Shown here piece after piece: positions 17,413-43,459 of a DNA stretch of 64,000 bases; the stretch's first letter is position 1; every line of letters begins with the position of its first letter. The position numbers and the translations under genes are program-made. Below the pieces are notes generated by a model. It did no database searches and was not told the origin of the DNA. It was given only the letters and a program-made list of their open reading frames with translations. Source of the stretch: Minisyncoccota bacterium (GTDB lineage Bacteria > Patescibacteriota > Minisyncoccia > Phycocordibacterales > UBA1006); assembly GCA_021209525.1 (NCBI GenBank), contig JAJOIF010000004.1, positions 35,730 to 99,729 on the forward strand, given 5' to 3'.

Positions 17413-17450
17413 AGAAAAACTCAGAACAGTACTGTTTTGAGTTTTTCTTT
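17413..17450. terminator. Bidirectional terminator between convergent LOG and mazF-like genes
   Basis: aaaaactcagaacagtactgttttgagttttt. Confidence 0.55.
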
Positions 17451-17870: not shown

Positions 17871-18025
17871 GGAATTGCTGGATCATAATTATTTTTCATA
17901 ATCGTTCCTACTGCGCGCGCAGCTTTGGGGTTTCCTGTGGCGCGTGCTACTTCGCCATAGGTCATGACAGAGCCTGCGGGTATTTTTGATACGACATGGA
18001 GGACTTTTTGGGTGAAGGTGGGCAT
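17768..18025 (-). CDS. Methylated-DNA-protein-cysteine methyltransferase DNA-binding domain protein (MGMT/Ogt family)
   Basis: 85 aa with the active-site motif PCHRVI and a helix-turn-helix region. Confidence 0.75.
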   Translation of the reverse strand: MPTFTQKVLHVVSKIPAGSVMTYGEVARATGNPKAARAVGTIMKNNYDPAIPCHRVILSSGKAGAYNRGGEDAKKELLQREGVEV

Positions 18026-18077
18026 AGTAAATTAGAGAATGGTGATGAATCATGATTTTAACACTATTTCATTCATC

Positions 18078-21092: not shown

Positions 21093-21105
21093 ATTTATAC
21101 TATAA

Positions 21106-22209: not shown

Positions 22210-22213
22210 AATT

Positions 22214-23383
22214 TTATTTCACCTCAACTCTCCCGCCGACTAACTGCGGAATGAGGATGTCTCTTGTTTTTTGTAAATTTTGGTTTTGTTTTTCAAGATT
22301 ATATTTTTCAATCATCATCTCTTTTACATGTTCACCAAATTTTTCACACAAATCCACTGGTGGTAAATAAACTTTTTTTGCTGAAAATTCTGGCCAATGA
22401 CCCTTGTAGTCGTTGAAATAAATTAAATCTTTTGTTGCAAAATGTAACCAAAAAATATTTCTATAATTTTCTTTGCTAGGATAAAACGGCAAGACATTTT
22501 GAATAGCTGAAAACGGAAACATAATCAAATTTTGATAACATGTGTGATTTGCAAAAACAATAACAGGATTTTCTGTACTTGCATTTATACCTGGCTCATC
22601 ATTATGATAACCAATCACACCACTTTTCCCTTGATCTAAAATAGGAACATTTCCAATTGGTAAAGCTGTTTTATTGTCGTATTTTTTACCAACCGAAACT
22701 CTTTCAATCAAATCCTCAACTTTCTTCACCTCCCACCCATTAGGTAATCCATCTTTTACCGGTCTTACAAACCATTCTTTGTAGAGGGTTTGAGCGAGGG
22801 TTTCGAGGGTTTTTATTTTCTTTTGATTCACCTCAATCAAATCATCATACGCCGAAAGCACCTCCGCAATTTTCTTTTGTTCTTTATATTCTGGAACCAA
22901 AAAATCAATAGAAAGCATTTTTTCAAGACTCAAGTTATCTTGAGCAGCACCACTTGAAATAGATTGAAAATCTTTTTTAAACAAATCGAGCAAATATTTT
23001 ACAAATCTTACACCAGAAACATTTTCATAAGACCTAAATCCAACAACACTATCGGGAAAACATGCTGGTATTTTTAGAATAGCACTCTCAGAAATATTCG
23101 CCGCAATTGTAATACAAAGAGTATCAGGTTCCCAAAGTTTACTTTGAGCGAGTCCTTTTTCGTTATATGTTTGGGAATATTCTGAAATATAACAGTTAGC
23201 AGATTTTATATCTGAAGTTTGAATAAAAGGATATTCACCTCCATATAGACTTGAATCATTTCTTGGACGATGACGAGAGCGACCTCTATTTAATTCACCT
23301 AAATCGGTCAACCTCACCCTCTTCCACTCCGCCTTGCGAGTTTTCTCCCCACTATTCTTTTGTGTTGTTTGTGTTTTATTCAT
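22214..23383 (-). CDS. hsdS: Type I restriction-modification specificity subunit
   Basis: 389 aa with two target-recognition-domain halves and central/distal conserved repeats. Confidence 0.85.
   Translation of the reverse strand: MNKTQTTQKNSGEKTRKAEWKRVRLTDLGELNRGRSRHRPRNDSSLYGGEYPFIQTSDIKSANCYISEYSQTYNEKGLAQSKLWEPDTLCITIAANISESAILKIPACFPDSVVGFRSYENVSGVRFVKYLLDLFKKDFQSISSGAAQDNLSLEKMLSIDFLVPEYKEQKKIAEVLSAYDDLIEVNQKKIKTLETLAQTLYKEWFVRPVKDGLPNGWEVKKVEDLIERVSVGKKYDNKTALPIGNVPILDQGKSGVIGYHNDEPGINASTENPVIVFANHTCYQNLIMFPFSAIQNVLPFYPSKENYRNIFWLHFATKDLIYFNDYKGHWPEFSAKKVYLPPVDLCEKFGEHVKEMMIEKYNLEKQNQNLQKTRDILIPQLVGGRVEVK
23309..23383. repeat. 75-bp direct repeat, copy A (authentic hsdS 5' end)
   Basis: ~90% identical to 24201-24273. 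Confidence 0.8.
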
Positions 23384-23455
23384 AAATTCTTGTTTGTGGA
23401 TAACTATTTACATTTTTGACCATTTTTGATATATTGTAAATGTAGGTTTTTCCTA

Positions 23456-24166
23456 CTAATCACGCGGTCCCGCTTTTGCGGGATTTTCGCTTTTTGGCTC
23501 GTAATTTCTTTTTCCTGTATAGAGTCGCCCAAAATCAAAATATTTATCTTTAATTTTATGCAGTTCTTCTGCGACTTGATTTCTCACTCCACAAATCCCA
23601 ATCTTTTTATTTTCAATTTTCAATCTTTGTAAAGGACCCTGCATATCAGAATCCCCAGAAAACAAAATAACTGCAGAAAACTTTTTTGCATCATCTAATA
23701 TGTCCATAGTCATCTCTACATCAAAATTACATTTTGGTTCTTCTATTAAAATACCTGGTTTATGTAATTCGTCTACAAGTTCTTCAATTTTACTTTTTAC
23801 ACCATCATCAAAAAGAGTCATAGTTTTACGCTGAAAAAACATTCCTTCTTTTATTGTCTTGGGAATATACTTCATTGGTTTTGTTTTTAGGATTGCACCA
23901 GTTTTTAAAATTCTTTTATGAAAAGCTTTTGAGTTTTTCAAATCTCTGGTATTTAAACCATAGTAAACTTTTATTTCTTGAATATTTTTATATGTTTTTA
24001 GTTGTTCTATCAAGTCTTCTATTCTAAATTTCCAACCCAAAACATCTTGCCAGTGGAACATATTTGTTAAATCCAAATACACAAAAACCACAGGCTCTTT
24101 TTCTAACCATTCTAGATAGTCTTCTCTTACCATAATTTTATTTTTAATATCCTGTGGTATTTCCAT
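23456..24166 (-). CDS. NYN-domain (LabA-like PIN-fold) nuclease
   Basis: VFVYLDLTNM... and AVILFSGDSDMQGPLQRLKIENKKIGICGV match the NYN/LabA fold. Confidence 0.65.
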   Translation of the reverse strand: MEIPQDIKNKIMVREDYLEWLEKEPVVFVYLDLTNMFHWQDVLGWKFRIEDLIEQLKTYKNIQEIKVYYGLNTRDLKNSKAFHKRILKTGAILKTKPMKYIPKTIKEGMFFQRKTMTLFDDGVKSKIEELVDELHKPGILIEEPKCNFDVEMTMDILDDAKKFSAVILFSGDSDMQGPLQRLKIENKKIGICGVRNQVAEELHKIKDKYFDFGRLYTGKRNYEPKSENPAKAGPRD

Positions 24167-24167
24167 A

Positions 24168-24272
24168 TTATTTTCTAAAATTAAATTTAAGTAAAATGCC
24201 CAACTTCACCCTTTTCCACTTTGCCTTGCGAGTTTTCTCCCCACTATTCTTTTGTGTCGTTTGTGTAGTCAT
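24168..24272 (-). pseudogene. Truncated duplicate of the hsdS 5' end (34 codons, MTTQTTQKNSGEKTRKAKWKRVKL... then stop) immediately upstream of the NYN gene
   Basis: Reverse complement of 24201-24272 encodes MTTQTTQKNSGEKTRKAKWKRV; the hsdS N-terminus is MNKTQTTQKNSGEKTRKAEWKRV. Its stop is 1 nt before the NYN ATG. Confidence 0.7.
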
Positions 24273-24273
24273 G
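24201..24273. repeat. 75-bp direct repeat, copy B
   Basis: caacttcacccttttccactttgccttgcgagttttctccccactattcttttgtgtcgtttgtgtagtcatg matches copy A. Confidence 0.8.
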
Positions 24274-24276
24274 TAT

Positions 24277-25746
24277 TTATAGTAATAACAAATAATCTAA
24301 AGGAATCTTCACTATACTATCCTCTGATAATTCTAAAGAATCACTACCAAAAACAATTCCATACTTTGCTCGACCTTTTGTTTTTTTCATAGTTGTTTGA
24401 ACTTGGTTTATTTCATTCTTTGAAAAACCAATTTCAAATACAATTTCTGTATTGTCTTTAAATCGAACAATAAAGTCCGCTCCGCCTGACCCATAATCAT
24501 AGTATGCGTCTACTTGTCCATAGAGTTCTTTTGAAAATAGTAAAGCCAAATAATCTTCAAGAATTTTTCCTTTTATATCAACACCTATTACACCACTCAA
24601 AAGACCTATTCTAATATTAGGACTCATAAAGAGGTATTTCCCACTTTTTTTTACTTGCTTATATGGTTGTCCGTATGCTTTTAATTCATAAAGAATTTCA
24701 GCATCAGTGAGAGCGGATAGAATTTTATTCAAAGTTAACGGAGCCAAATCTATTGTTTCCGATAGTTTTTTTATACTTATCTCATCACTATTTGCAAGAA
24801 GAAAAAGTACATTTGGGATTTTTACCAGAGTCTCTGCATTAAAGTCATTAAGCAAAATCAAATCTCTTTGCACAATATTAATCAGAATCATTGCTTTTAT
24901 TCTTTCAAGGGCTTCTGACTCGTTAATCATTTCAGCAGAAAATGGAAAAGAGCCTCTATAAAAATAGTCTTTCTTGAGATCGTTTAAATTTGTAATAGTA
25001 GAAAGTTTTTTAATAATTACTGATTGTAGTTGTTTTATTTTATCAAAAACTTCTTGAGCATTTTTGCTATGAAAAATTGCTCGAGCTAGATTTTTAGATA
25101 AATCTTTCTCTGGAAAGATATCTTTATGTAAAGTTAGATACTCACAAAACTTTGTAGGTAAAACCCTTTCTGTTTTTGACCTTCTCACCAAATCTTTGTT
25201 TTTTTGATTAAGGAAAATTGCAGAAGATCCTGTTGCAATAACAAGAATATTTTTGTTTCCTTTTGTTTTATCAAAAAGTAATTTTAAGAACAAATCCCAC
25301 TTTGGATCGTATTGAATTTCATCAATAAGTAAAAGAATTTTCTTTTTATTCTGCAATAAATTTCCCCAAACATTTTTTTCTAAATAATCAATGAATTCAC
25401 CCAAAGAAATATCTTCAGAAAGCAAACGGTCAACAGAAATATAAATCCTTTCATCTACCGTAGTGTTAATATCTTTAGATAAATGGTTTACTGGTTTATT
25501 TATTTCAAAAAAATATAATTGAGATAACAAGGTTGTTTTACCAACACCACGAATACCTGGTAGAATAATTATTTTTTCCTCTTCGGGTAATTCTCCTGAT
25601 ATAAGTTTATTTACATATTTTTGTAACATTAAATAAGAGGAACGAGTTTTTCTCTTTTTCCCTTCAGGTGTTTGAAAGTAGCTTTTTAGATATTGATCTA
25701 AATTTGACTTCCATTCGATATAGAATTTTTCAATATTTTTGTTCAT
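24277..25746 (-). CDS. AAA+ ATPase (archaeal-ATPase/AAA_14 + DUF4143-like) embedded in the type I R-M operon
   Basis: Walker A ILPGIRGVGKTTLLSQL, Walker B LLIDEIQY. Confidence 0.65.
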   Translation of the reverse strand: MNKNIEKFYIEWKSNLDQYLKSYFQTPEGKKRKTRSSYLMLQKYVNKLISGELPEEEKIIILPGIRGVGKTTLLSQLYFFEINKPVNHLSKDINTTVDERIYISVDRLLSEDISLGEFIDYLEKNVWGNLLQNKKKILLLIDEIQYDPKWDLFLKLLFDKTKGNKNILVIATGSSAIFLNQKNKDLVRRSKTERVLPTKFCEYLTLHKDIFPEKDLSKNLARAIFHSKNAQEVFDKIKQLQSVIIKKLSTITNLNDLKKDYFYRGSFPFSAEMINESEALERIKAMILINIVQRDLILLNDFNAETLVKIPNVLFLLANSDEISIKKLSETIDLAPLTLNKILSALTDAEILYELKAYGQPYKQVKKSGKYLFMSPNIRIGLLSGVIGVDIKGKILEDYLALLFSKELYGQVDAYYDYGSGGADFIVRFKDNTEIVFEIGFSKNEINQVQTTMKKTKGRAKYGIVFGSDSLELSEDSIVKIPLDYLLLL

Positions 25747-25979
25747 ATTACAATATAATCATATCACATTTCTGATTATATCCTAGTGTTTTCAAAAAGT
25801 AAATACCCTTTATATCCTTATTTTAAAGAGTTTTTAACACATTTCTGATATTGAGTTTTTGGCATTTCACTTTTTATATGATTTCGTATAAAAAGTGAAA
25901 TACCAAAAATGTGTATAATTATACATAAACTATACACATTTTATACATATTCTGATTTTGAATTGTAAAATAAGGCTTT

Positions 25980-27497
25980 TTACAGTATTTTCTTCAGATT
26001 TTCTTTGATTTTCTTTTCTAAAACCGCTGATTCTTTAAACAGATTCTCTAGGTCATTTGAAAGATTTTTGACTTTTTCTTGGAAATCCTCTTCTGATTCT
26101 TCTATTACTTCAGTACCCACATATCGCCCTGGGTTGAGCGAATATCCAGCTTCAGCAACTTCTTGCAATGTTGCAACCTTACACAGTCCTTTTACATCTT
26201 CGTATTTCCCTGCCCCGCTTTCGCCACGATACGCACGAACAATATTTGCAATTTGATCTATTTGCTCTGGAGTGAATTCTCTATGTGCTCGATCAATTTG
26301 TCGGTAAATATTTCTTGCATCAATAAAAAGAATTTTATCTTTTCTATTAGAATTTATTTTTCCTTTATCAAAAAACCAAAGTGTACAAGAAAGAGTTACG
26401 GTATAGAAAAAATTTCCACCAATCGCAACCATCACATCTACCACACCTGACTCGATCAACTTTTTTCTAATTTCAAGTTCTGTTCCTCGTGCGTCACTCG
26501 CAGAATTTGCCATAACAAATCCTGCGCGTCCGTTTTTGTTTAAGCTTTCATAAAAATGCTCAATCCACAGATAGTTTGCATTGTCCACTGTTGGAATACC
26601 AAGTCTATATCTTTTATCTTCTCGTACTTTTTCCTTGTCTACACCACTGACATTAAACGGAGGATTTGCCATGACAAAATCAAATTGCCCCACACTTTCA
26701 TGCAAATCTTCATAAAAAGTATTTCCTTGTTTTATTTGCCCTTCGAGTCCGTGTACTGCAAGGTTCATTTTACACAAATCGGCACTTATTTCTGATTTTT
26801 CTTGTCCATAAATTGAAATAATATTTTGAGTGCTGTTTTTGTGTTTTTTTACAAATTCCGCGCTCTGTACAAACATGCCACCTGATCCACATGCAGGGTC
26901 ATAGACTTTTCCTTGGTACGGTTCGAGGATTTCTACAATCAATTTTACAAGTGAAGTCGGAGTAAAGAACTCTCCTCCACCCTGACCTTCTGCCATAGCA
27001 AAACTTGAAAGGAAATATTCATAAATTTTTCCAAAAACATCACCTTCTACATCCATCGGGATTTCACTAAAAGTTTTAAGAAGTCCAATCAAAATATGAT
27101 TTTCAAGTTTGTTGTATGTTTTTGGTAATACGCTTTTGAGGTTGGGATTATATTCCTCAATTTCTTTCATCGCATCATTGATTGCTTTTCCTATATTTAC
27201 ACCTTCTTTAAGATTGAGTAAATATGAAAAGCGAGCGATTTCAGGAATATACATAATTCCTTTTGCTTGATATTCTTCAGGACCGATCTTTCTCTCGCGA
27301 ACCAGAGAAGCTCCTGTTTTTTTAGTATTCTTCAGTTCATTATCCGCGTGTTCAAATTTAAATTCAGCAAATCTCAAGAAAATAAGCCCTAGAACTGGTT
27401 GAGAATATTGATGAACGGTAAGACCAGAATTTGCTCGCAATGAGTTTGCAGCATCCCACAATCGCTCTTCTAATTTTTTAAGACTTTCTTTTGCCAT
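25980..27497 (-). CDS. hsdM: Type I restriction-modification N6-adenine DNA methyltransferase subunit
   Basis: 505 aa. HsdM N-terminal domain. Motif I region [10 protein letters not shown]. Motif [11 protein letters not shown]. Confidence 0.9.
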
Positions 27498-27506
27498 ATT
27501 GTTATA

Positions 27507-28181
27507 TTAAAGCATTTTTTCACTTTTTATACTAGTAAAACCTTTTGCTGTAATAACCAAATGATCTTGCACTTGTACGCCCAATAATTCCCCCGCCTTT
27601 ACGAGTCTTTTAGTTACTTCAACATCCTCTATCGAAGGTTCCAATGATCCAGAGGGGTGATTATGAGTAATAATAATACTCGAAGCATGTAATCGTAAAG
27701 CTGGTTCAAAAACTTCTCGTGGGTGCACTAAGGATGCGTCGAGAATTCCGACGGAAACAATGATTCGTTCAATTAATCGACTTTGTGTGTCTAAATAAAA
27801 AACCACTAGATGTTCTTTTTTGGAATCTTTAATGTCAGAACACAACAGCCAAACATCTTTTGGGGATAGTATTTCTACTTGATCATTTTGAGTAAAGCGT
27901 TTTCCTAATTCAATAACTGCAAGTATTTGTAATGATTTCACCTTACCTAATCCTTTAATATCTAAAAAATCATTCAAGGAAATATCTTGGACTCCTTTCT
28001 TTTGAATTACCCGGAGCGCTTTACGAGAAATTTCAAGCACATTAATCCCTTGAATTCCTGAGCTAAGCAAAATAGCAAGCAGCTCATAATCTTGCATTTT
28101 TCGTGTTCCATATTTTTCTAATTTTTCACGAGGTAAATATTTTTCATACATATTTAAATATATTAAAATAATCATGCTCAA
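27507..28181 (-). CDS. RadC-like JAB-domain protein (UPF0758)
   Basis: HhH-like N-terminus and JAMM motif HNHPSGSLEPSIEDVEVT. 10 nt upstream of hsdM. Confidence 0.8.
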   Translation of the reverse strand: MSMIILIYLNMYEKYLPREKLEKYGTRKMQDYELLAILLSSGIQGINVLEISRKALRVIQKKGVQDISLNDFLDIKGLGKVKSLQILAVIELGKRFTQNDQVEILSPKDVWLLCSDIKDSKKEHLVVFYLDTQSRLIERIIVSVGILDASLVHPREVFEPALRLHASSIIITHNHPSGSLEPSIEDVEVTKRLVKAGELLGVQVQDHLVITAKGFTSIKSEKML

Positions 28182-28255: not shown

Positions 28256-28648
28256 TTACTCTGCATACTCAACATCCCACAAGAATCCATTGCTGCCTTG
28301 TGGCCATATACGATCCTCAAAACTATTATTAATATCAAGGCATATCTTGCCGCGCATGTTATAGAGCAATACCTTGCCATGTGGTGTTGCAATACGCACA
28401 CCACGATGTGACTGCATGAAATCAAAGGGGCGCTCACCATTTTGCTGTTCCGGCTCTGTGGATATAATCATAATCTCATTCCCGGTACGCGGATCGGTGG
28501 TAATTTTGAAATGACCTTGATCATAATGGTGAACAATATCTATGATGATTTTTTCAAAGTCTTTTTGTAGGTAAAATTTTTCATCAACGGTGCGATCAAT
28601 AAAGATATGATCGAATCTTTTTTTGAATATTTCTATTATATTTTCCAT
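28256..28648 (-). CDS. Hypothetical protein (130 aa)
   Basis: Clean ORF with balanced composition; no recognisable motif. Confidence 0.4.
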   Translation of the reverse strand: MENIIEIFKKRFDHIFIDRTVDEKFYLQKDFEKIIIDIVHHYDQGHFKITTDPRTGNEIMIISTEPEQQNGERPFDFMQSHRGVRIATPHGKVLLYNMRGKICLDINNSFEDRIWPQGSNGFLWDVEYAE

Positions 28649-28736
28649 AGGTGCTTTTTTGTTTGTATGATACTCGTGTAAAAGTATGTGTCAATTGATG
28701 ACTATGATCAATTTTGAGATATTTTTATATCGCAGA

Positions 28737-28918
28737 TACGCGGGCTCGAGGGGCGGACCTCGTCAAACAGGGCAGGCTTCGCGGGTCCTTGGTTCGAGCC
28801 CCATCCGTCAACATAAATAAAAACACCAAAAGCTGTCGCTTGTGGTGTTAATATTTATGTGTTGGCGTCCTTGAGCCAGAACCGTGGTCAGTCAAGCCCT
28901 GCAAGGACATTTTTAGTT
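28737..28918 (+). ncRNA. Candidate structured RNA (~180 nt, GC-rich, unclassified)
   Basis: Sits in a 305-bp ORF-free gap. Stable hairpin CGAGG-GGCGGA-CCTCG. T-loop-like GGTTCGAGCCCC. Hairpin caccaaaagctgtcgcttgtggtg. Terminal stem GTCCTTG...CAAGGAC followed by ATTTTTAG. Confidence 0.3.
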
Positions 28919-28952
28919 TCTTTATCTTATCATTCCGACGGTCTTTGAGCAC

Positions 28953-29144
28953 CTATAAAATCACCTGGTTTCCGTCTTTATCTAGCACCACTCCTTTTGG
29001 CAGTTTATACCTATCTGGATTTTGTTTTCTATCCTGATCTAGTAGCCACTGAAAAACTGCTACCACTCTATCAGTTTCTTCCTTAGTCCAATTTTTAGGA
29101 TTTCTTTTATCTTCTTGATTCATAAAAAGTGACAAAAGTGACAC
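28953..29144 (-). CDS. Small hypothetical protein (63 aa), last gene of the NTase operon
   Basis: ORF 25 nt downstream of the TM effector gene. Confidence 0.3.
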   Translation of the reverse strand: MSLLSLFMNQEDKRNPKNWTKEETDRVVAVFQWLLDQDRKQNPDRYKLPKGVVLDKDGNQVIL

Positions 29145-29168
29145 AGTTTTGAGTATAAAAGTTACAAA

Positions 29169-29768
29169 TTACTGTAACTTTTTAACTTCAAAAGAGCCTG
29201 TATTATTACGATCTCTACCTGAGTAATATTCTGTTTGAAGCACTCCTTCATCTTCTAGCTTTGCAGATGCTGATCCCTCATGTATATGCATACTTTCAGG
29301 TGCATTATCTTTTGGTTTGTTTCTGTATTGATAATGTATTCTAGCCGTCCCGAATTCATCGACATTCATTGACGCTTCAAAACTGAAAGATTCTGATGTC
29401 TCTGTTTCCAGATAGATAAGTAGATGAGTCCATGTTTGTTTAATACAAAATTTCTTTATCTGTATTGGACCGTTGGCATGATTTGAATGAGATGTTATGG
29501 TTCCAGACCAATTTCCGTCTATGATAGGAGTTTTTATACTAGCAATTTTGCGAATAAAATTATTTCTCCACAAATTAGTTTCGAACCACTTATGTAAAAT
29601 TCCATAAAATCCAATTACCGAAGGAGCTTCTATCCACCACGGTAAGGGAAAGATGTTTTTTGAAAATAGATATAATCCCCATGCAAGCAATATCGATATT
29701 ACTGCAAGATAAAGCGACACATACTTGTGTTCTTCTGAGTTTATTGAATATGGATGTATGTTTTGCAT
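29169..29768 (-). CDS. Predicted membrane effector: two N-terminal TM helices + ~130-aa beta-rich C-terminal domain (Cap15-like architecture)
   Basis: TM1 YVSLYLAVISILLAWGLYLF. Second hydrophobic segment PLPWWIEAPSVIGFYGILHKW. Start is 3 nt after the NTase stop. Confidence 0.45.
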   Translation of the reverse strand: MQNIHPYSINSEEHKYVSLYLAVISILLAWGLYLFSKNIFPLPWWIEAPSVIGFYGILHKWFETNLWRNNFIRKIASIKTPIIDGNWSGTITSHSNHANGPIQIKKFCIKQTWTHLLIYLETETSESFSFEASMNVDEFGTARIHYQYRNKPKDNAPESMHIHEGSASAKLEDEGVLQTEYYSGRDRNNTGSFEVKKLQ

Positions 29769-29770
29769 AG

Positions 29771-30694
29771 TTATTTATTCCAATTATCCCAAAGTTCCAC
29801 AAAAGCACTAATAGTTTTTACTGCATCATCTTGGTTCCACTGCTCCTCACTTTCACCAAATAATTCATGAAAATGGTTTTGACACATACATTGACCAAGA
29901 GCTAATGCAGACCAGAGATGTTTTAATACTGCGTGTACGGTTGTAGAATGATCACCAGTAAAGTGCTCATCAGGGACATTGTAAATTAATGACTGTAAGA
30001 AATATGAAGGCGCTACACCATCGGTAAGTTTACCTGTATCAACAAGATGATTTCTCATATTTTTGAAAATTCGCACTGTTGGCTTAAAACGCCCGCCTGT
30101 ACGAGTATCTGAATTTTTATCAACTCCATTTTGATAGTGGTGCTCTGGATAATTTATGATTCCACGATTTGTTGTGCGATGATAGAATTTAACACCCTCT
30201 TCCGCATTATGACTATTAGTACCATAGAAATAATCATATTTTCGATAATTTATAACAGGAACAATGTCGGCCTTTAGTCTTCCTGAAGAAGGTTTGAGTT
30301 TAATTGACTTATTACCACTTGTATCAACGGAAAGTAATCCATAATATTTAGTCAGAGCAGAAATGACATCTCTGCGTAAATCTTGCCAATCATAAACAGC
30401 ACTACCATATGCCTGATCATGAGCATTTTTCTGATCATAAGGAAGTTCGTGTGCATTATGACCAAATGTAGTTGTTAACTCGACAACTACATCCACATCA
30501 CTATCTGCTCGAATATTTGTATCGTTTTTATATGATCCCTGGAGATAGATTTTTACCGAACCATTACTGATACGATCTTTAAGTGGTGACTGATCATGTG
30601 TCAGTGCTGTTCGAATAGATTCATGAGTTGCTTTTGCTGAAACAGTAGCACCTTGATTCGACCATGTTGTTAGTTGAGAGAGTGGAATTGCCAT
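29771..30694 (-). CDS. Pol-beta-superfamily nucleotidyltransferase of the SMODS/CD-NTase type (candidate CBASS cyclase)
   Basis: GS-x9-DSDVDVVVEL gives GS...DxD. A downstream LKADIVPV supplies the third acidic residue on a beta-strand (the 'DIVP' signature of cGAS/DncV-like enzymes). Confidence 0.6.
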   Translation of the reverse strand: MAIPLSQLTTWSNQGATVSAKATHESIRTALTHDQSPLKDRISNGSVKIYLQGSYKNDTNIRADSDVDVVVELTTTFGHNAHELPYDQKNAHDQAYGSAVYDWQDLRRDVISALTKYYGLLSVDTSGNKSIKLKPSSGRLKADIVPVINYRKYDYFYGTNSHNAEEGVKFYHRTTNRGIINYPEHHYQNGVDKNSDTRTGGRFKPTVRIFKNMRNHLVDTGKLTDGVAPSYFLQSLIYNVPDEHFTGDHSTTVHAVLKHLWSALALGQCMCQNHFHELFGESEEQWNQDDAVKTISAFVELWDNWNK

Positions 30695-30695
30695 A

Positions 30696-31607
30696 TCATT
30701 TAAATAGATTATCGATTTCAGCCGACCAATTATCGCTATGTATTATCCTATCTTTTTGATAGTTATTTTTAAGTATTTCTGCTTTGGTCATTTGAGAAAG
30801 CACCTCCCAATCAGTACCTAACACGTAAGTAGCATTACCATAATGCAAACTTTCAAGTAAATAAATACTTTTATCTTTATATCCAAACACAAGATACCCA
30901 GTAAAACCTCCCAACCCTATCGCTATTTGATCAGGCTTGTAAGATTCAATTTTTTTGAACCTGTCAGCTATCATTGCTTTTTCTCCAACAGATCTTTTTT
31001 CAATAATTTCTTTTACTCTTTCGTTAACCTTACTCCAGGGATTTATTCCAGGAGGTAGTAACTCCCAGTTGAGTCTAATAATTTTAGTTTTGACTGGTAG
31101 AGTCAAATTTTCTTTAAAAATCTGAAACTCATCAAATATTTCAAAAAACAAATTCATTGCATGCTTAATATCAGCATATTCACTTTTTACTTTTTTAAAT
31201 TTCTTTGAAATAACTATTTTCTTTGCATCATTTTCAGCAATTTGAAACTCCAAACTAGGAGGAGGGACTAGTTCTCTTTGCCATCTTTCATATGGCATGT
31301 AATTTACACCACTATGTTCATAGCCGCCCCAATCAGTTAATGTCCATTCTCTAGGATAATAAACTGTCTCTTTTGGTAGATCTTTTCTAGGATTTTCTTT
31401 ACCTTCTGCATTAAACTCTGAAACATTTCCAAATATCGCAGGAAGAACAGTCTCACCCACATTGAGATTATTAGAGAAACCTATCTTTTTAAGTAAATCA
31501 AATAAATTATCATTAATCTCAATACCGACATAAAAATTCTCATTCTCTTTTATTAAGGAGAGGTATTTTTCAGGATTAATTACTCTTTTGTGTCTTTTCT
31601 TTGCCAT
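30696..31607 (-). CDS. Hypothetical protein (303 aa), second gene of the repressor-NTase-effector operon
   Basis: Overlapping or abutting neighbours (4-nt and 1-nt gaps). No recognisable motifs. Confidence 0.45.
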   Translation of the reverse strand: MAKKRHKRVINPEKYLSLIKENENFYVGIEINDNLFDLLKKIGFSNNLNVGETVLPAIFGNVSEFNAEGKENPRKDLPKETVYYPREWTLTDWGGYEHSGVNYMPYERWQRELVPPPSLEFQIAENDAKKIVISKKFKKVKSEYADIKHAMNLFFEIFDEFQIFKENLTLPVKTKIIRLNWELLPPGINPWSKVNERVKEIIEKRSVGEKAMIADRFKKIESYKPDQIAIGLGGFTGYLVFGYKDKSIYLLESLHYGNATYVLGTDWEVLSQMTKAEILKNNYQKDRIIHSDNWSAEIDNLFK

Positions 31608-31610
31608 AAT

Positions 31611-32228
31611 TTAGTATAGATCACCAGGAAGTACAGCAACGACTACTCCTTGTATGATGCAGTTATCTGTTAATATAATCGGCTTATGGTCTTTGTTTGT
31701 TGATTTCGGTTGAAGTACAACAGCACCATTCGCTTTCTTGAACACCTTGACGGTTGCTTCGTCATTTATAAGGGCAACAACCTTTTCATTATCTTCCGCT
31801 GTATCCTGTTGTCGAATCAAAAGCAGATCTCCACTATTAATTCCTGCAAGATTCATCGAGTCACCCATAGCACGCAATAGAAAATATTTTGAACCCTTTT
31901 TAGCTAGCCCTGTTGATACAGGAATCATGGCTTGAATATTTTCTTCAGCTAGTACTGGTGAGCCACAAGTTACAGCACCAACCAAAGGAACATCAACTGT
32001 GCTTATTGAAGCTGTTGTCTGCGATCCAGTAAGGATAAGCTGTCGTCCGATTTTCTTTATTAGACCAGCCTCGATAAGTCGATTAACAACAAGGCTCGCA
32101 GATCGTGGAGATTTACCGCCTGTAACCTCATTAATCTCATCGAGAGTAGGGCTTTTGCCATAATGAACAATCTTGTTACGGATAAGGGCAAATGCTTTTT
32201 TGTCTTTGTCGCTAAGGTTATTTGTCAT
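31611..32228 (-). CDS. LexA/CI-like repressor (HTH + S24 autopeptidase)
   Basis: HTH PTLDEINEVTGGKSPRSASLVVNRL. Cleavage-site-like VGAVTCG. Ser/Lys dyad region GDSMNLAG...K. Start placed at MTNNLSDK; the upstream in-frame extension is palindromic operator DNA. Confidence 0.8.
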   Translation of the reverse strand: MTNNLSDKDKKAFALIRNKIVHYGKSPTLDEINEVTGGKSPRSASLVVNRLIEAGLIKKIGRQLILTGSQTTASISTVDVPLVGAVTCGSPVLAEENIQAMIPVSTGLAKKGSKYFLLRAMGDSMNLAGINSGDLLLIRQQDTAEDNEKVVALINDEATVKVFKKANGAVVLQPKSTNKDHKPIILTDNCIIQGVVVAVLPGDLY

Positions 32229-32286
32229 AGTATAAATAGTATAAATTATACTATACAAAAAAGCAAGTATTTGCTATGATATTCTT
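32229..32286. promoter_or_regulatory. Divergent promoter/operator region with palindromes
   Basis: TAGTATAAATTATACTA (32237-32253), direct repeat agtataaat x2, near-palindrome gcaagtatttgc. Confidence 0.4.
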
Positions 32287-32919
32287 ATGGAAAATGACCA
32301 GAAAAAACCAATGACTGTCGGTGAACTGGTAGCAAAGATACACTCTCCTGTTTTAAGCGAGGGGCAGATTTCTCAATTTCGAGAGATTGGTAAAAGACAT
32401 GCGGAAATGATTGAAAATATCAGAAAAGTTGCACAACCTATTATTGAACAAATGAATCGTGTTCGCGAACAAACAAAGCTTTTTGAACCAGTAGAATATC
32501 CAGCAATAGTATATCGTCGCCCCGTTGAATATGACATCCTGGAAGAACTACAAGAATTAAATAAAAACCACAAACGTCTTCTGTCTTCAAGCGAAGATAG
32601 TAATATAATCATCTACGACACAAGTAATGGGTCGCTCGACAGACATTTGGGTGGCAAACTATTTTCATACGATCTCACTGAAAATGGAAAAAGAAAGAAA
32701 TTACTTGAAACATTACTGAATCGAGATGCTTATGTACAAACAAAAGACTTACAAAGAATACTCTCTTGCCCATCATCGCAGGCAGTAGCAAAAATAGTTC
32801 AAACTTTTAATGACTATGCGATAAACACACTAAGACTACCAAAGAAGACAAAACTCATTCAAGGAAAGAAAGGTTCTGGATATCGTATTAATCCTAAAAT
32901 ACACATAGAGAAAGAGTAA
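32287..32919 (+). CDS. Hypothetical protein (210 aa), divergent from the repressor. Possible Cro/antirepressor-position regulator
   Basis: Position divergent from the CI-like gene. C-terminal basic region. Confidence 0.4.
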   Translation: MENDQKKPMTVGELVAKIHSPVLSEGQISQFREIGKRHAEMIENIRKVAQPIIEQMNRVREQTKLFEPVEYPAIVYRRPVEYDILEELQELNKNHKRLLSSSEDSNIIIYDTSNGSLDRHLGGKLFSYDLTENGKRKKLLETLLNRDAYVQTKDLQRILSCPSSQAVAKIVQTFNDYAINTLRLPKKTKLIQGKKGSGYRINPKIHIEKE

Positions 32920-33093
32920 ATTCCTAAGTTGACACCAAGTTGAGTGGATAACTTTGAAAAATCGCCTTTAAATAGGCGTTTTTTCTTTATGTTACTCAAT
33001 TTTGTGGTGATTACATGACTATGTACCTTTTTGATTTCATAGAGTTAGTAGATTAGTCATCTACAAATTTATAAGTAATTAAATAAAAACTCT

Positions 33094-34371
33094 ATGAATA
33101 AAAAACCTTCATGGAAAACAGGAGTTAGAGAAGTCAAAGATTTACTCCCTTGGAAAGAAAATCCAAGAAAAATCTCACGGGTCGCTATGGAAAAATTAAA
33201 AGAGAAAATCATTCAAAGTGGTTTTCATAGTGTAATTGTTATTGATACAGACAATACGATTATTTCAGGTAATCAAAGAAAAACTGCTTTGATACAGCTC
33301 GGTATTAAACAAGTAAATGTACTGATTCCTGATCGTAAATTGTCTGACGAAGAACGTCGCAAGATTGCGATCGAAAGCAATGTCAACGACGGTGAGTGGG
33401 ATTTCGAAAAGCTTAAGTCTTTTGACCTTGAGCTTTTACAGTTCGCTGGATTCAACGAAAAAGAATTAGTTAAGTTTTGGGACGAAGAAAAGGATACCAA
33501 AGATGACAAATTCGATGTCGATAAAGAGTTAAAGAAAATAAAAACACCGCAAACAAAGCCGGGTGATCTTATCATCATGGGTGGTCATAAGTTGCTATGT
33601 GCTAGCTCAACCGACATGAATGCTGTCACTAAGCTATTCGGAAATGATAAAGCCACGGCTATCTATAATGATCCACCTTTTAATATCGGGCTTTCATACG
33701 ACAAAGGTGTTGGTAATAAATCTAACTACGGAGGTACGTTTGACGACAATCAATCACCTGAAGAATATAAAGAATTTATTCGCAAGGTTCTAAAATCTTC
33801 ACTAACCGTATCTACCAAAGATGTACACGTCGCTTTCTGGTGTGATGAAGCCTGGGTGTGGGTTTTTCAAACGCTCTATATGGAAAATGGAGTTAAGAAC
33901 CGAAGACTTAATGTCTGGGTTAAAAACAATTCATCACCGACACCAACTGTTGCGTTCAATAAGTGTCTTGAGTATTGCGTGTATGGCACAAAAGGATCTC
34001 CATATATTTCAGATCTCGTAAAAAATCTCAACGAAGTACAAAACAAAGACTATGGAACTGGTAACCAACTTCTTGAAGACATCTCAAATATCTGGGCAAC
34101 AAAACGACTACCTTCAAATCAAATGGAACATGCGACGAGTAAAAATCCTGAATTACACCATAAGTTTATTATGCGTTGCACTAAGCCAGGAGACATCATT
34201 TTTGATGCCTTCTCTGGATCTGCTAGCACCATGATCTGTGCAGAACAACTGGGTCGAAAGGTCTATTCCCTAGAGATAGAGCCTGTGTTTTGCGATTTGG
34301 CGATTCGTCGTTATGAAAAATTAACTGGTCATAAGGCACAAGTAATTAAGAACTTCTATGAAAAAGAATAA
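33094..34371 (+). CDS. ParB-like nuclease domain fused to an N6-adenine/N4-cytosine DNA methyltransferase (phage-type orphan MTase)
   Basis: N-terminal ParB/Srx motif region. C-terminal IYNDPPFNIG (DPPF motif IV) and FDAFSGSAST (motif I). Confidence 0.8.
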   Translation: MNKKPSWKTGVREVKDLLPWKENPRKISRVAMEKLKEKIIQSGFHSVIVIDTDNTIISGNQRKTALIQLGIKQVNVLIPDRKLSDEERRKIAIESNVNDGEWDFEKLKSFDLELLQFAGFNEKELVKFWDEEKDTKDDKFDVDKELKKIKTPQTKPGDLIIMGGHKLLCASSTDMNAVTKLFGNDKATAIYNDPPFNIGLSYDKGVGNKSNYGGTFDDNQSPEEYKEFIRKVLKSSLTVSTKDVHVAFWCDEAWVWVFQTLYMENGVKNRRLNVWVKNNSSPTPTVAFNKCLEYCVYGTKGSPYISDLVKNLNEVQNKDYGTGNQLLEDISNIWATKRLPSNQMEHATSKNPELHHKFIMRCTKPGDIIFDAFSGSASTMICAEQLGRKVYSLEIEPVFCDLAIRRYEKLTGHKAQVIKNFYEKE

Positions 34372-34765
34372 ATTTCAAGATCAGTTTCTTGATGAGCTAC
34401 GGAAAGTGCCAATCATTCAGGTTGCTTGCGAGAAATCAGGACTATCTCGTCAAAGTGTCTATCGGTGGAGAAAGGAAGATAAAGAATTTCTCAAGAAAAT
34501 GGATAGTGCACTTTCTGAAGGTGTCGCCTTGGTAAATGACATGAGTGAAAGTCAATTACTTACGCTCATCAAAGAGAAAAACTATCCTGCAATTAGTTTT
34601 TGGCTCCGTCACCGAAATGATAATTACAAAAACAAGCTTGAGATTACTACTAAAGATGATAACGAGGAACTAACACCGTCACAAGCGAAAATTGTAAAGC
34701 AGGCGCTCAAACTCGCAAAAATTACTAAGTCGAAATCTATTAAAAATATTAATCGTAAAAAATAA
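34358..34765 (+). CDS. Phage terminase small subunit-like HTH protein
   Basis: HTH VACEKSGLSRQSVYRWRKE. Sits immediately upstream of the terminase large subunit. Confidence 0.5.
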   Translation: MKKNKFQDQFLDELRKVPIIQVACEKSGLSRQSVYRWRKEDKEFLKKMDSALSEGVALVNDMSESQLLTLIKEKNYPAISFWLRHRNDNYKNKLEITTKDDNEELTPSQAKIVKQALKLAKITKSKSIKNINRKK

Positions 34766-34767
34766 TT

Positions 34768-36264
34768 ATGACTAAAATAATTCCCAAAGCACTGGTGAAT
34801 ACGATGATAAAAGATCGTTCAGTGCGAACATCAATTACCAAGGATAGTTTTCTGTATTTCTTCCATTTTTACTATGCACACTATGTAAAGTATGAGACAG
34901 CAGATTTTCAAAAAGAGATTATTCATAATCTCGAAAAAAGTACCACAGAAAATCTGTATGTAGTAGCATTTCGTGGATCAGGAAAATCGACCATGGTTAC
35001 AACAGCATACCCAATTTGGGCAATCCTCGGAAAACAACAAAAGAAGTTTTGTATTATCTTTTGTCAGACACGAGCACAAGCAAAGCAACATATGATGAAT
35101 ATCCGTACTGAACTTGAGGGTAATGACGTTCTTAAAAAAGACCTTGGACCTTTTCAAGAAGAAAGTGACGAATGGGGCTCATTCTCTCTTGTATTCAAAA
35201 AGCACGGAGCAAGAATTACTGTAGCTTCTGCCGAGCAAAGTATTCGTGGAATTCGTCATAATGAACACCGTCCTGATCTCATCATCTGCGATGACGTTGA
35301 AGATGTTCAATCTACTAAAACTCGTGAGGGTCGAGAAAAGACATATAACTGGCTCCGTGGCGAGGTTGTACCTGCTGGCGATAGAAATACACGCTTAATC
35401 ATAGTCGGAAACTTACTCCACGAAGATTCGTTGTTAATGCGTATTAAAGACGAAATTGCAAAAGGTAAGGCGAAAGGAATTTTCAAAGAGTATCCGTTGA
35501 TTGATAAGAATGGTGTTTGTTTATGGTCTGGGAAATATGCAACAGAAAGAGATCTTGAGGATGAGAAGTTAAAAGTTGCCAGTGAAATATCGTGGCAACG
35601 AGAATATTTACTCCGTATTATTCCAAGCGATGATCAAGTTATCTATCCAGAATGGATTCAGTTTTATGACGAACTGCCAGGAGAAAAACATCGTGGCTAT
35701 CGTGGTACCTATGCAGGAGTAGATCTTGCGATTTCAGCTTCAGAAACAGCTGATGACACAGCTGTGGTATTTGCCCACATTTATTCACGCCGTGAGAAAT
35801 TACGAATTTATATACTACCTAACCCTATTGCAAAGAAACTTAACTTTCCTGCACAGGTGGATCTTATGAAAGATATTCGCAACACTTTGCTCACAAGAAG
35901 CTCTGACGAGTTGTTTGTTGAGAGTGTTGCATATCAAGAAGCCCTACCACAAATGCTTGAACATCATGGTGTTAAGGCTACAGCAATAAAACCTAAGGGT
36001 GACAAAAGAACACGACTTGCTCTTACTTCAACTGCAATAAAATCAGCAAAAATTTTATTCCCAAGACAAGGGTGTGAAAGACTTATCGAGCAACTTGTTG
36101 GATTTGGAGTAGAAAAGCATGACGACTTAGCGGATGCATTTTCTCTCTTAATTAACTCAACTATGGATAAACATTCAGGAGAATCTACATGGCTTATGTA
36201 CTGGATGGGAGATGATGAACCTTTGTATTTTAGGGATTATGTAGATATGGGTCAAAAAAAGTAG
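34768..36264 (+). CDS. Phage terminase large subunit
   Basis: Walker A FRGSGKST, Walker B LIICDDVED, and a C-terminal RNase-H-like nuclease region. Confidence 0.8.
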   Translation: MTKIIPKALVNTMIKDRSVRTSITKDSFLYFFHFYYAHYVKYETADFQKEIIHNLEKSTTENLYVVAFRGSGKSTMVTTAYPIWAILGKQQKKFCIIFCQTRAQAKQHMMNIRTELEGNDVLKKDLGPFQEESDEWGSFSLVFKKHGARITVASAEQSIRGIRHNEHRPDLIICDDVEDVQSTKTREGREKTYNWLRGEVVPAGDRNTRLIIVGNLLHEDSLLMRIKDEIAKGKAKGIFKEYPLIDKNGVCLWSGKYATERDLEDEKLKVASEISWQREYLLRIIPSDDQVIYPEWIQFYDELPGEKHRGYRGTYAGVDLAISASETADDTAVVFAHIYSRREKLRIYILPNPIAKKLNFPAQVDLMKDIRNTLLTRSSDELFVESVAYQEALPQMLEHHGVKATAIKPKGDKRTRLALTSTAIKSAKILFPRQGCERLIEQLVGFGVEKHDDLADAFSLLINSTMDKHSGESTWLMYWMGDDEPLYFRDYVDMGQKK

Positions 36265-36359
36265 TCGCGAGTATGCAATATTTCGCTAGTTCTGCATAGA
36301 CTTAGCAAAACGCTCAAATTGCGTCATCAATATAATATGGAGACGCAATATATAAGTAA

Positions 36360-37655
36360 TTTAGGGGTAAGGACAGAAGTACCAAAACCAAGATTCGGTA
36401 TGTCCTGTATGCTCGAAAATCAACCGAATCAGACGAAAAGCAAGCCTTATCTATTGAATCACAGGTTAAGGAAATGCTTGCCATAGCCGACCGTGACGGC
36501 TTAACAGTTGTTGATATTAGGCGTGAATCTCATTCAGCTAAAGAATCCGGTCAACGACCAGTATTTAGAGAGGTATTAGAGGATGTAAGACGTGGTAGAT
36601 ATAACGGAATACTCACATGGGCACCAGATCGTCTATCAAGAAACGCTGGCGACCTAGGATCAGTGGTTGACCTTATGGACGAGACAAAACTTCTTGAAAT
36701 AAGAACATATGGACAGCATTTTAAAAATTCTCCCAATGAGAAGTTTCTTTTGATGATCCTGTGTTCCCAAGCAAAGCTCGAAAACGATAACAAAAGTATA
36801 AATGTAAAACGAGGACTGCGAACAAGGTGTGAAATGGGATTGCGACCTGGACCTGCTGTAGTCGGATATCTTAATGAAAAGAGAATGGATAAAAAGTGCG
36901 AAGTGGTTATAGATCCTGAACGAGCACCGATAGTTAAACAAATGTTTGAAAAAGTAGCTTATGAAAAATGGTCAGGAAGAAAGCTCTATCACTGGCTTAA
37001 GTTTGATCTTAATTTCAAAACTCGTAGTGGCAACAAAGGTCTTACCCTTAGCAATATTTATCTCATACTTCAAAATCCATTCTATTATGGAGTTTTTGAG
37101 TATCCACGAAAAAGTGGAAATTTCTATACTGGAAGACACAAGCCAATAATCAATAAGGAGCTTTTTGAATTAGTCCAAGAGCAGGTAAAAAGCCAAGTTT
37201 TAAGGACCCAAGAACCAAAAGAGTTTGCTTTTACAAAAATGATGACTTGCGGGCTTTGTGGCTCAGGAATATGTGCTGATGAAAAGTTTAAAAAGTTAAA
37301 AGATGGGTCAGTAAACAGGCATATCTATTATGGATGTACTAGATCTAAAGATAAAAATTGTAAGTGTGGGTATATAAACGAGATTGAATTAATACAGCAA
37401 TTTGAAAAGTTGATTGATCAAGTAAATATCAACGAGATTGGGATGAAAGAGAAAATCAAATATGAAGTTGAGCGAATAAAACGCTTTAATCAATCTGTAT
37501 TAAATACAAAACAGCAGATACAAATAAAAGACGTAGACATCAGAGACTACGCCAAATTTATTTTGAAAGACGGTTTGATTGAGGAGAAACGAGAATTACT
37601 AACTTGTTTTAAGAGTAAGATTTTCCTAAAAGAGAAAAGAATTTTCCTCGACTAG
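36360..37655 (+). CDS. Large serine recombinase (resolvase/invertase catalytic domain + recombinase and zinc-ribbon regions); start codon unresolved
   Basis: Catalytic motif IRYVLYARKSTESDEKQALSIESQ is in frame upstream of the first ATG (36474). No ATG, GTG or TTG lies in frame between the TAA at 36357 and the Ser codon. Confidence 0.75.
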   Translation, partial: FRGKDRSTKTKIRYVLYARKSTESDEKQALSIESQVKEMLAIADRDGLTVVDIRRESHSAKESGQRPVFREVLEDVRRGRYNGILTWAPDRLSRNAGDLGSVVDLMDETKLLEIRTYGQHFKNSPNEKFLLMILCSQAKLENDNKSINVKRGLRTRCEMGLRPGPAVVGYLNEKRMDKKCEVVIDPERAPIVKQMFEKVAYEKWSGRKLYHWLKFDLNFKTRSGNKGLTLSNIYLILQNPFYYGVFEYPRKSGNFYTGRHKPIINKELFELVQEQVKSQVLRTQEPKEFAFTKMMTCGLCGSGICADEKFKKLKDGSVNRHIYYGCTRSKDKNCKCGYINEIELIQQFEKLIDQVNINEIGMKEKIKYEVERIKRFNQSVLNTKQQIQIKDVDIRDYAKFILKDGLIEEKRELLTCFKSKIFLKEKRIFLD

Positions 37656-37659
37656 ATAT

Positions 37660-38094
37660 TTAATTCTGTCTAAATCCCTGCATTCCTGAACCTAGCTGAA
37701 TCGACTGAGCATTTACGCTACCATCTGAATTTGCTTGACCCATAATAACCACATTCTCTCCCACAACCAAATCAGCAACAGTTCCTGCTTGTGTTTTGTT
37801 AATAGATGTCGAAGTTGAAAGTAGAATAATTTTAGATCCACCATCTGTGAGTTTTACAGTGATACTCGTATCGTCCTTAGCGATAATTTCACCAACAGTG
37901 CCACCACCGAACACACCTTGTCTACTTTGCGCTCCACTTGGACCGCCTTGTCCACCTCTAAATTGACCCGCTTGTCCCTCTGGGAACCCAGTTGGTCTAT
38001 CGCTAGATTGAGAAACTTTGGTACCTGCATAAAATGCACCACCCCCAACAACCAAAACACCAATAATCGCACCTATAATTATATTTTTGTTCAT
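37660..38094 (-). CDS. Secreted DUF5666-like protein (N-terminal TM, Gly-rich linker, beta-rich domain); paralog of 41757-42248
   Basis: GEIIAKDDTSITVKLTDGG...DLVVGENVVIMGQANSDGSVNAQSIQL is similar to the 163-aa protein upstream in the operon. Confidence 0.45.
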   Translation of the reverse strand: MNKNIIIGAIIGVLVVGGGAFYAGTKVSQSSDRPTGFPEGQAGQFRGGQGGPSGAQSRQGVFGGGTVGEIIAKDDTSITVKLTDGGSKIILLSTSTSINKTQAGTVADLVVGENVVIMGQANSDGSVNAQSIQLGSGMQGFRQN

Positions 38095-43258: not shown

Positions 43259-43388
43259 CTTTTACATTATAGCAAAAAATCACCGCTTTGTTGACGGTGA
43301 TTTTTTGCTCTGGTTACTGCTCTCAGCAGATATGCAATTACTGTATAGATTTCCTGATTAGCTCTATCTTTGAGCTAGCTCAAGTTTG

Positions 43389-43459
43389 CTGCCGGGCTAG
43401 GACTCGAACCTAGATACCCAGGACCAAAACCTGGTGTCCTACCATTAGACGACCCGGCA
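43389..43459 (-). tRNA. tRNA-Gln (TTG)
   Basis: Revcomp TGCCGGG...CCCGGCA acceptor (U1:A72), anticodon arm CCAGG-TTTTGGT-CCTGG, T-arm CTAGG-TTCGAGT-CCTAG. Confidence 0.85.

Follow-up and report, generated by a model that had tools for sequence, protein, structure and literature searches.

Phage-inducible chromosomal islands (PICIs, for example the SaPIs of Staphylococcus aureus), capsid-forming PICIs (cfPICIs) and the minimalist satellites of Vibrio (PICMIs) are the closest described counterparts of the element discussed here, an 8.8-kb unit at positions ~28861–37655 of a stretch of DNA from a Minisyncoccota bacterium; "the window" denotes this stretch at its full length of 64 kb. PICIs are defined by an AlpA, Stl or MerR regulator, a primase-replicase, a small terminase (TerS) and, often, capsid-remodelling genes, in the absence of a large terminase (TerL), and they redirect the packaging of their helper phage by means of their own TerS (PMC10085698). 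cfPICIs are the only described satellite family with TerL as well as TerS (PMC10085698). PICMIs, in turn, have a minimal gene set, depend totally on a helper for particles and protect their host from other phages; they keep int, alpA and a primase, which serve excision and replication, and carry no packaging genes (PMC10803314). Serine and tyrosine integrases are treated as exchangeable by SatelliteFinder (PMC10085698).

Bacteria of the Candidate Phyla Radiation (CPR, Patescibacteria) account for a considerable part of bacterial diversity, and their mobile elements, phages and routes of gene exchange are poorly known. We read the unit, with a probability of roughly 0.5, as belonging to a large family of small, integrative, satellite-like "hitcher" islands of these bacteria that package themselves into helper-phage capsids. 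The members of this family have a fixed gene content that is conserved between distant copies, slots that receive different cargo, and multiple insertion sites. The fixed core comprises (i) a repressor switch, in which a LexA-type gene diverges from a gene for a small DNA-binding protein; (ii) an operon of a ParB-fused methyltransferase, TerS and TerL; and (iii) a large serine recombinase with its own upstream region. This anatomy of switch, operon, recombinase and cargo slots points to an integrative element that is probably inducible and that would use a terminase of its own to package its DNA into the capsids of a helper.

The island resembles a PICI in its small size (~9 kb), in being integrated, in having an integrase, a switch under repressor control, a TerS of its own and accessory or defence cargo, and in lacking particle genes. 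Among the defining PICI features, the integrase (frameshifted in the window copy) and TerS were found, whereas a primase-replicase and a capsid-remodelling gene were looked for in vain; no AlpA, Stl or MerR regulator was found either, the regulators being a LexA-type S24 repressor and an OmpR-type winged-helix protein. The island furthermore differs in encoding a full TerL and a ParB-methyltransferase, in a repressor at the level of a LexA orthologue, and in its CPR host. The label "PICI-like", which an original prediction made from the sequence had attached to this locus, is only an analogy. With cfPICIs the island shares the presence of both terL and terS, but cfPICIs also encode a capsid protein, a head-tail adaptor and a connector, none of which occurs in the window or in the 86 loci of the family compared below. 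Its minimal gene set, its presumably complete reliance on a helper for particles, and its potential to protect the host recall PICMIs, yet the division of labour is the reverse: packaging without replication. Because of these comparisons, the island is placed as a satellite or hitcher variant and not as a PICI.

A conserved packaging operon without particle genes

All five plus-strand open reading frames (ORFs) that had been predicted between 32287 and 37655 were found. Three of them encode the packaging module. The first is a ParB_N-fused DNA methyltransferase (MTase; 33094–34371, plus strand; Pfam ParB_N and N6_N4 methyltransferase, 1.6e-28; phrog_498, 1.7e-72) of the beta class (N6A/N4C), in which motif IV (DPPF) precedes motif I (FDAFSGS). 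Its stop is overlapped by the start of a small terminase-like helix-turn-helix protein, TerS (34358–34765, plus strand; phrog_4044, 1.8e-9, as well as phrog_4102 and phrog_309), followed by TerL (34768–36264, plus strand; phrog_38, 4.6e-78), which scores 41.7 bits against the NCBIfam model TIGR01630 with its cut-off of 41.65. That the three genes overlap or abut indicates a single operon. TerS and TerL are the DNA-recognition and motor-nuclease parts of the packaging machinery of double-stranded DNA phages. The catalytic motifs of TerL are all intact (Walker A AFRGSGKST, Walker B LIICDD, C-terminal nuclease DDLADAF) and, judged by its residues, the protein combines the Walker A/B ATPase with the acidic residues of an RNase H-like nuclease, as expected of a large terminase. 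The module had been proposed to be intact and its MTase to be an orphan, which is borne out by the profile matches, by the complete TerL motifs and by the lack of a restriction partner of the MTase inside the unit.

In a TerL search covering one genome per species, 207 stretches were found to encode a relative, 80 of which were retrieved (60–99% TerL identity); a search of viral contigs contributed six further relatives, down to 51% identity, for a total of 86 loci, here numbered L001 and so forth and compared with the window copy. The hosts of the 80 loci from the species scan are nearly all labelled CPR/Patescibacteria; the taxon names of the metagenome-assembled genomes (MAGs) are given as deposited, and a few non-CPR names may reflect binning errors. 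Counts of MTase, TerS and recombinase around TerL refer to the 73 loci with sufficient upstream sequence, and the count of LexA to 70 loci. In every one of the 73, down to the relative with 51% TerL identity (L086), TerL is immediately preceded by the ParB-MTase and TerS genes. Downstream of TerL, 63 of the 73 loci have the recombinase on the same strand, directly adjacent in 33 and behind 0.9–8 kb of inserted genes in the other 30.

Selection on these genes is strongly purifying. The ratio of non-synonymous to synonymous substitution rates (dN/dS), computed against the closest copies (88–90% nucleotide identity; dS 0.4–1.0), is 0.007–0.008 for TerL at dS 0.6–1.0, 0.022 for the ParB-MTase and 0.029 for TerS. 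At least 3294 relatives of TerL were found among 8000 protein-database candidates scored (E ≤ 1e-5, 90%-identity clusters); each of the 120 best-scoring ones is at least 77% identical, and their names, if they have any, are only "phage terminase large subunit" or hypothetical. The closest TerL proteins of cultured phages, those of the Mu-like phage SuMu and of Mannheimia phage 3927AP2, are 27% identical, and plasmid matches reach 26%. A distant likeness to Mu-like and T7-like terminases is also apparent from the NCBIfam model termin_lrg_T7, which matches the ATPase half, and from PDB entry 8dgc. Identity nevertheless amounts to only 23–27%, and in the phages portal and head genes come after TerL, in the islands the serine recombinase or cargo.

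No capsid, portal or tail gene is present anywhere in the 64-kb window, in agreement with the predicted lack of structural genes, for which an adjoining structural module had been set as the test; nor is there one in the element span or the 10-kb flanks of the 86 loci. Likewise, none of the ORFs of 28861–37655 has a primase, helicase or Rep domain in Pfam, PHROGs or NCBIfam. The island thus supplies packaging specificity and a motor, and neither a part of the particle nor a recognizable replication function. The gene types themselves are those of a temperate phage, and together with the frameshift in the recombinase of the window copy (see below) they could suggest a decayed prophage, left behind when an ordinary temperate phage lost its structural genes by deletion. 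This explanation is largely refuted and may be regarded as very improbable: the same minimal architecture recurs in all 73 loci over a range of 51–99% TerL identity; dN/dS lies between 0.007 and 0.08 for every core gene, including the recombinase past its frameshift, rather than showing the relaxed selection of a defective prophage; no relative with structural genes after TerL, such as a complete phage, was found; and the frameshift, which varies between assemblies that do not otherwise differ, may be an error. Where the original prediction had wavered between a satellite and a degraded phage, the first half is supported and the second is not.

The regulatory switch

The leftward arm of the core begins with a LexA-type repressor of 205 amino acids (31611–32228, minus strand, from the ATG at 32228; Peptidase_S24, 1.2e-27, and LexA_DNA_bind), which reaches 134 bits with the NCBIfam model lexA TIGR00498, above the cut-off of 111. 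The C-G cleavage site, the serine of GDSM and the lysine are present, and the protein is predicted to be autocleavable: by sequence, the winged-helix N-terminal domain, the Ser/Lys dyad of S24 peptidases and the cleavage site of a LexA protein are all in place. A LexA/CI-like repressor had been expected on the left; it does exist, but at 31611–32228 it lies outside the span of 32287–37655 for which it had been claimed. LexA-like genes are found in divergent orientation upstream of the core in 40 of the 70 loci. Against the closest copies, LexA has a dN/dS of 0.07. Where LexA is missing, several loci carry an ImmA-like metallopeptidase and an XRE repressor in its place, an arrangement known from inducible elements.

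Between the repressor and the rightward arm lies a control region of 58 bp (32229–32286, no strand), highly conserved in 12 copies, with promoter-like hexamers and a conserved inverted repeat (AGTATAAATTATACTATAC), which make it a candidate operator. A search of the window for an SOS box of the form AGTATA-N8-TATAC yielded 7 matches versus 1 expected, at sites that resemble AT-rich promoter sequence. The first gene of the rightward arm (32287–32919, plus strand) had been taken for a CI-like repressor. Its AlphaFold2 model (38 homologues, pLDDT 77) instead has long N-terminal helices that form a coiled-coil N-terminal half, and a C-terminal half that Foldseek matches to the DNA-binding domains of CovR and AdeR (TM 0.70–0.75), that is, a winged helix of the OmpR/PhoB type. 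A terminator scan found a terminator-like hairpin at 32963–32978, 3′ of this gene. In most other copies a different protein of 138 amino acids, without known function, takes its place.

The large serine recombinase

The last gene of the unit encodes a large serine recombinase (36337–37655, plus strand; 439 amino acids in relatives) with the Pfam domains Resolvase, Recombinase and Zn_ribbon_recom, so that the serine-bearing Resolvase domain, the Recombinase domain and the zinc ribbon of this enzyme class are all found. The ORF listed for it starts at ATG 36474, too far downstream to include the catalytic serine; the motif with this residue, YARKST, is encoded in frame further upstream, and the true start is ATG 36337, as in relatives. 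The family foreseen for the recombinase is correct, but as sequenced the gene is split: a run of adenines at 36384–36387 (A4; A5 or CA4 in all relatives) has lost one nucleotide. Among assemblies that are otherwise 100% identical, A4 occurs in the window and L092, and A5 in L091, L093 and L094; a sister assembly carries other indels. Since identical assemblies differ at the site and the sister assembly has indels elsewhere, the deletion may be a homopolymer error of the assembly and the gene not a pseudogene. The A4/A5 difference could also be an on/off polymorphism of the integrase. The recombinase has a dN/dS of 0.02 and is equally constrained downstream of the frameshift, which argues that inactivation of the window copy is either very recent or not real. 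Full-length recombinases of 438–439 amino acids are encoded in L101 and L104. The nearest NCBIfam model is CcrB (3.5e-35; 122 bits versus a cut-off of 900) and the nearest PDB entry is SprA/YokA, for which the match likewise falls well short of the family cut-off. Derivation of the C-terminal tail of the recombinase from the flank was considered and ruled out: the tails can still be aligned between copies.

The 72 bp upstream of the recombinase (36265–36336, no strand; invariant CTTAGCAAAAC) are conserved by alignment even in distant copies, and an inverted repeat, TGCGTC...GACGCA, brackets the start codon. In copies with cargo after TerL, the insertion sits just upstream of this region (break points corresponding to 36274–36283 of the window), and the region stays with the recombinase. 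It could, with its inverted repeat, be a regulatory or recombinase-binding site.

Boundaries and insertion sites

The ends of the unit were mapped by loss of homology between relatives. The resulting limits, ~28861–37655, agree well with the extent of ~28.7–37.7 kb guessed earlier. Homology with L002 is continuous from 28863 to 37644; in copies with different cargo it falls into two blocks, ~28860–29180 at the left end and 31600–37645. On the right, homology stops with the stop codon of the recombinase. On the left, nine copies whose left flanks are unrelated start to align at a conserved non-coding segment (28861–28952, no strand), and homology with relatives starts at the motif G(C/T)TGGCGTCCTTGAGCCAGAACCGTGG...CAAGCCCTG(C/T)AAGGAC. 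At least 19 loci have this motif, a single time in each element, at the left end and invariably on the plus strand, and a related end is also seen in L030 and L042; it may be an att half-site, a pac site or a terminator. In three copies (L001, L002 and L013) the left end contains the inverted repeat CTAGCTCAAG-N12-CTTGAGCCAG, which lacks a counterpart at the right end. A search for flanking att repeats had been proposed as a check. No att core or half-site symmetry was detected when the left end was aligned locally, on both strands, with the recombinase-upstream region and with the 3′ end of the recombinase gene: the scores did not rise above those of shuffled controls.

Immediately left of the island, 28725–28830 is a GC-rich and apparently structured stretch in AT-rich DNA, and after it a long imperfect hairpin (28801–28872) crosses the left junction; a tRNA fragment was sought at 28725–28830, with no ARAGORN call and no match to tRNA, tmRNA or Rfam.

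The flanks of the unit are unrelated between genomes. In five cases a single MAG contained two copies, arranged in tandem in L013. The copy in L055 is inserted between a sigma-70 gene and a tRNA-Gln gene, which in the window are direct neighbours. Look-ups of the flanking proteins (a DUF5666-like protein at 37660–38094 and a protein of 130 amino acids at 28256–28648) in search of an empty site returned only contigs identical to the window, and the 9–11-kb contigs L101, L102 and L104, recovered by exact-protein look-up as potential circular or excised forms, are linear chromosomal fragments.

The very strong purifying selection and wide distribution would also fit a function maintained by the host, for instance if the unit were the packaging and regulatory module of a dispersed, domesticated system like a gene transfer agent (GTA), or of a split prophage, with capsid and tail genes elsewhere in the genome; GTAs can indeed have split loci. 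We consider this quite unlikely. The module is multi-copy in some genomes, at different sites and together with an integrase, which fits a selfish element and not a fixed host locus; no structural gene occurs in the 64-kb window or within 10 kb of the module in the 86 loci; and for CPR genomes, which measure ~1 Mb, the literature searched reports no such cluster.

A tRNA-Gln gene lies a few kilobases to the right of the island in the window (43388–43459), in L001 (19718–19878) and in L002, L009 and L055; between the two stand a pump operon in the window and type IIG-like or type III restriction–modification (R-M) genes elsewhere, such that the 3′ side of tRNA-Gln looks like a hotspot for variable DNA. 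In seven loci (L016, L020, L025, L027, L036, L062 and L075) a second serine recombinase gene, 24–72% identical, is located just left of the cargo arm, which suggests that islands pile up next to each other.

Such accumulation is reminiscent of the staphylococcal cassette chromosome (SCC; CcrAB or CcrC), with which the island also has in common a large serine recombinase closest to CcrB, variable cargo and the lack of a transfer apparatus of its own. One could accordingly imagine a cassette whose recombinase shuffles cargo into a chromosomal hotspot while terminase and MTase are conserved passengers; the CcrB match, the tandem arrays, the extra serine recombinases left of several copies and the placement of cargo on either side of the recombinase would all agree with it. 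This account appears unlikely, since the recombinase scores far below the Ccr cut-off, neither cch, a primase-like gene nor any other SCC core gene is present, the rlmH target is missing, and SCCs have no terminase. The terminase operon is, moreover, more conserved than the recombinase, which argues that it is not a passenger.

Cargo slots and the defence connection

Exchangeable cargo, mostly anti-phage, occupies two slots, one between the left end and the repressor and the other between TerL and the recombinase. In the window the left slot holds a cyclic-oligonucleotide-based anti-phage signalling system (CBASS) on the minus strand: a Cap15 effector with two transmembrane segments (29169–29768; Pfam Cap15_CD_rec, 1.8e-27; PADLOC 2TM effector, 8.7e-57) and a CD-NTase (29771–30694; PADLOC cyclase, 9.6e-107), the combination of nucleotidyltransferase and nucleotide-sensing effector that characterizes CBASS. 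Between the CD-NTase and LexA a protein of 303 amino acids is encoded (30696–31607, minus strand) that matches no family and is found only in the window, in L002 (94% conserved, dN/dS 0.10) and in L047 (28% identity); it may belong to the CBASS as an accessory gene, or be a defence or cargo gene in its own right. In other copies the left slot contains a Thoeris-like ThsB/ThsA-macro pair, a caspase with a TIR protein, or other genes. The slot between TerL and the recombinase is filled, in six loci (L004, L005, L012, L018, L032 and L081; for example L005:11605–19124), by a diversity-generating retroelement with bAvd, reverse transcriptase and a putative target protein of ~300 amino acids, together with type III R-M genes, and elsewhere by Sie-like (superinfection exclusion), nuclease and regulator genes.

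At the outermost left of the unit, next to the conserved non-coding end, a small protein of 56 amino acids is encoded (28953–29123, minus strand; MNQEDKRNPKNWTKEE...), whose reading frame is conserved in nine copies. The protein matches nothing in Pfam, PHROG, NCBIfam or PADLOC, and may be a directionality factor or a regulator.

The company of these genes raises the question whether the terminase itself serves as a weapon. In a mobile defence island, TerS and TerL might cut or mis-package the DNA of infecting phages as it replicates, or occupy their procapsids, the MTase would mark self, and the recombinase would only move the island, with transfer in capsids incidental or absent. Defence systems and Sie-like genes always surround the core, and a methyltransferase translationally coupled to a nuclease-ATPase follows the logic of R-M. 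The conservation of TerL across hosts would be easier to explain without the need to fit the portal of one helper, and interference by PICIs with phage packaging is a known precedent (PMC10085698). Set against this, PADLOC has no match for TerS or TerL (nor for the recombinase, LexA or the proteins of unknown function), TerL keeps every feature of a bona fide packaging enzyme, and the LexA- or ImmA-type switch and the integrase point to an inducible, mobile life cycle. On balance, a role as a weapon seems rather unlikely.

A possible life cycle

If the hitcher island is a satellite, its genes could act in the following manner: DNA damage or infection by a helper phage would lead to cleavage of the repressor and thereby derepress the rightward arm. 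The recombinase would excise the island and later re-integrate it. TerS and TerL of the island would recognize and cut island DNA and pump it into the procapsids of the helper phage, and the ParB-MTase would modify the transferred DNA, which may thus survive restriction in the next host.

Several observations weigh against this scheme. The island has no replication module, while the described satellites replicate before packaging (PMC10803314, PMC10085698). The analysis yielded no helper phage, pac or cos site, att sites, excised circle, packaged form or empty site, and the left end does not resemble the recombinase-proximal one. Phages with structural genes yielded no related TerL, the nearest hits being 23–27% identical. 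A TerL that is 77–99% identical across many CPR lineages, finally, requires either a portal partner conserved to a similar degree or a function independent of a portal.

The presence of a complete terminase and a ParB-MTase without genes for particles or replication nevertheless suggests an own-motor hijack of helper procapsids, possibly starting from the chromosome or from an excised circle. We would tentatively go one step further, at odds somewhat short of even, and regard the islands as an unrecognized class of phage-satellite-like element and possibly the main vehicle of CPR defence islands. A search of full-text literature returned no description of a terminase-carrying CPR island, and packaging enzymes without particle or replication genes are a gene set not seen in the described satellite families. 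Should the islands indeed form a satellite-like class, they could be markers of CPR phages not yet known. A terminase that docks on the portal of a helper would point to conserved CPR phages still to be identified, and one that does not would have been put to a new use. The fixed slots that collect CBASS, Thoeris-like, R-M, diversity-generating retroelement and Sie-like genes offer a tractable handle on the movement of defence genes in CPR, and the recombinases, a large and diverse set of small (~439 amino acids) members of the large serine class, could serve genome engineering.

Genes around the island

A separate defence island of low GC content (17421–28181), outside the unit, starts with a MazF/PemK toxin and ends with RadC. 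It contains a type I R-M system (HsdR 18078–21092, HsdS 22214–23383, HsdM 25980–27497) that is interrupted by a protein like Shedu SduA_C (21106–22209), an NYN nuclease (23456–24166) and an AAA_14/DUF4143 ATPase (24277–25746). The original prediction had counted both CBASS-like and R-M genes as cargo, which is right for CBASS, inside the unit, but not for the type I R-M genes (18–27.5 kb), which lie outside. A circular permutation of the cargo, with type I R-M on the left here and on the right in other copies, was ruled out, as the R-M proteins are only ~25% identical.

Copper-resistance genes (a P-type ATPase, a CsoR-like repressor and a multicopper oxidase) adjoin the island on either side in six loci (L001, L003, L014, L045, L051 and L059). 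The remainder of the window is of housekeeping character, with tRNAs, gyrA, S1, 16S rRNA, SerRS, DprA, TopA, transporters and a MacB/ABC/HlyD pump; among these genes, 4665–6758 encodes a protein of 697 amino acids with a C-terminal T4SS_pilin domain.

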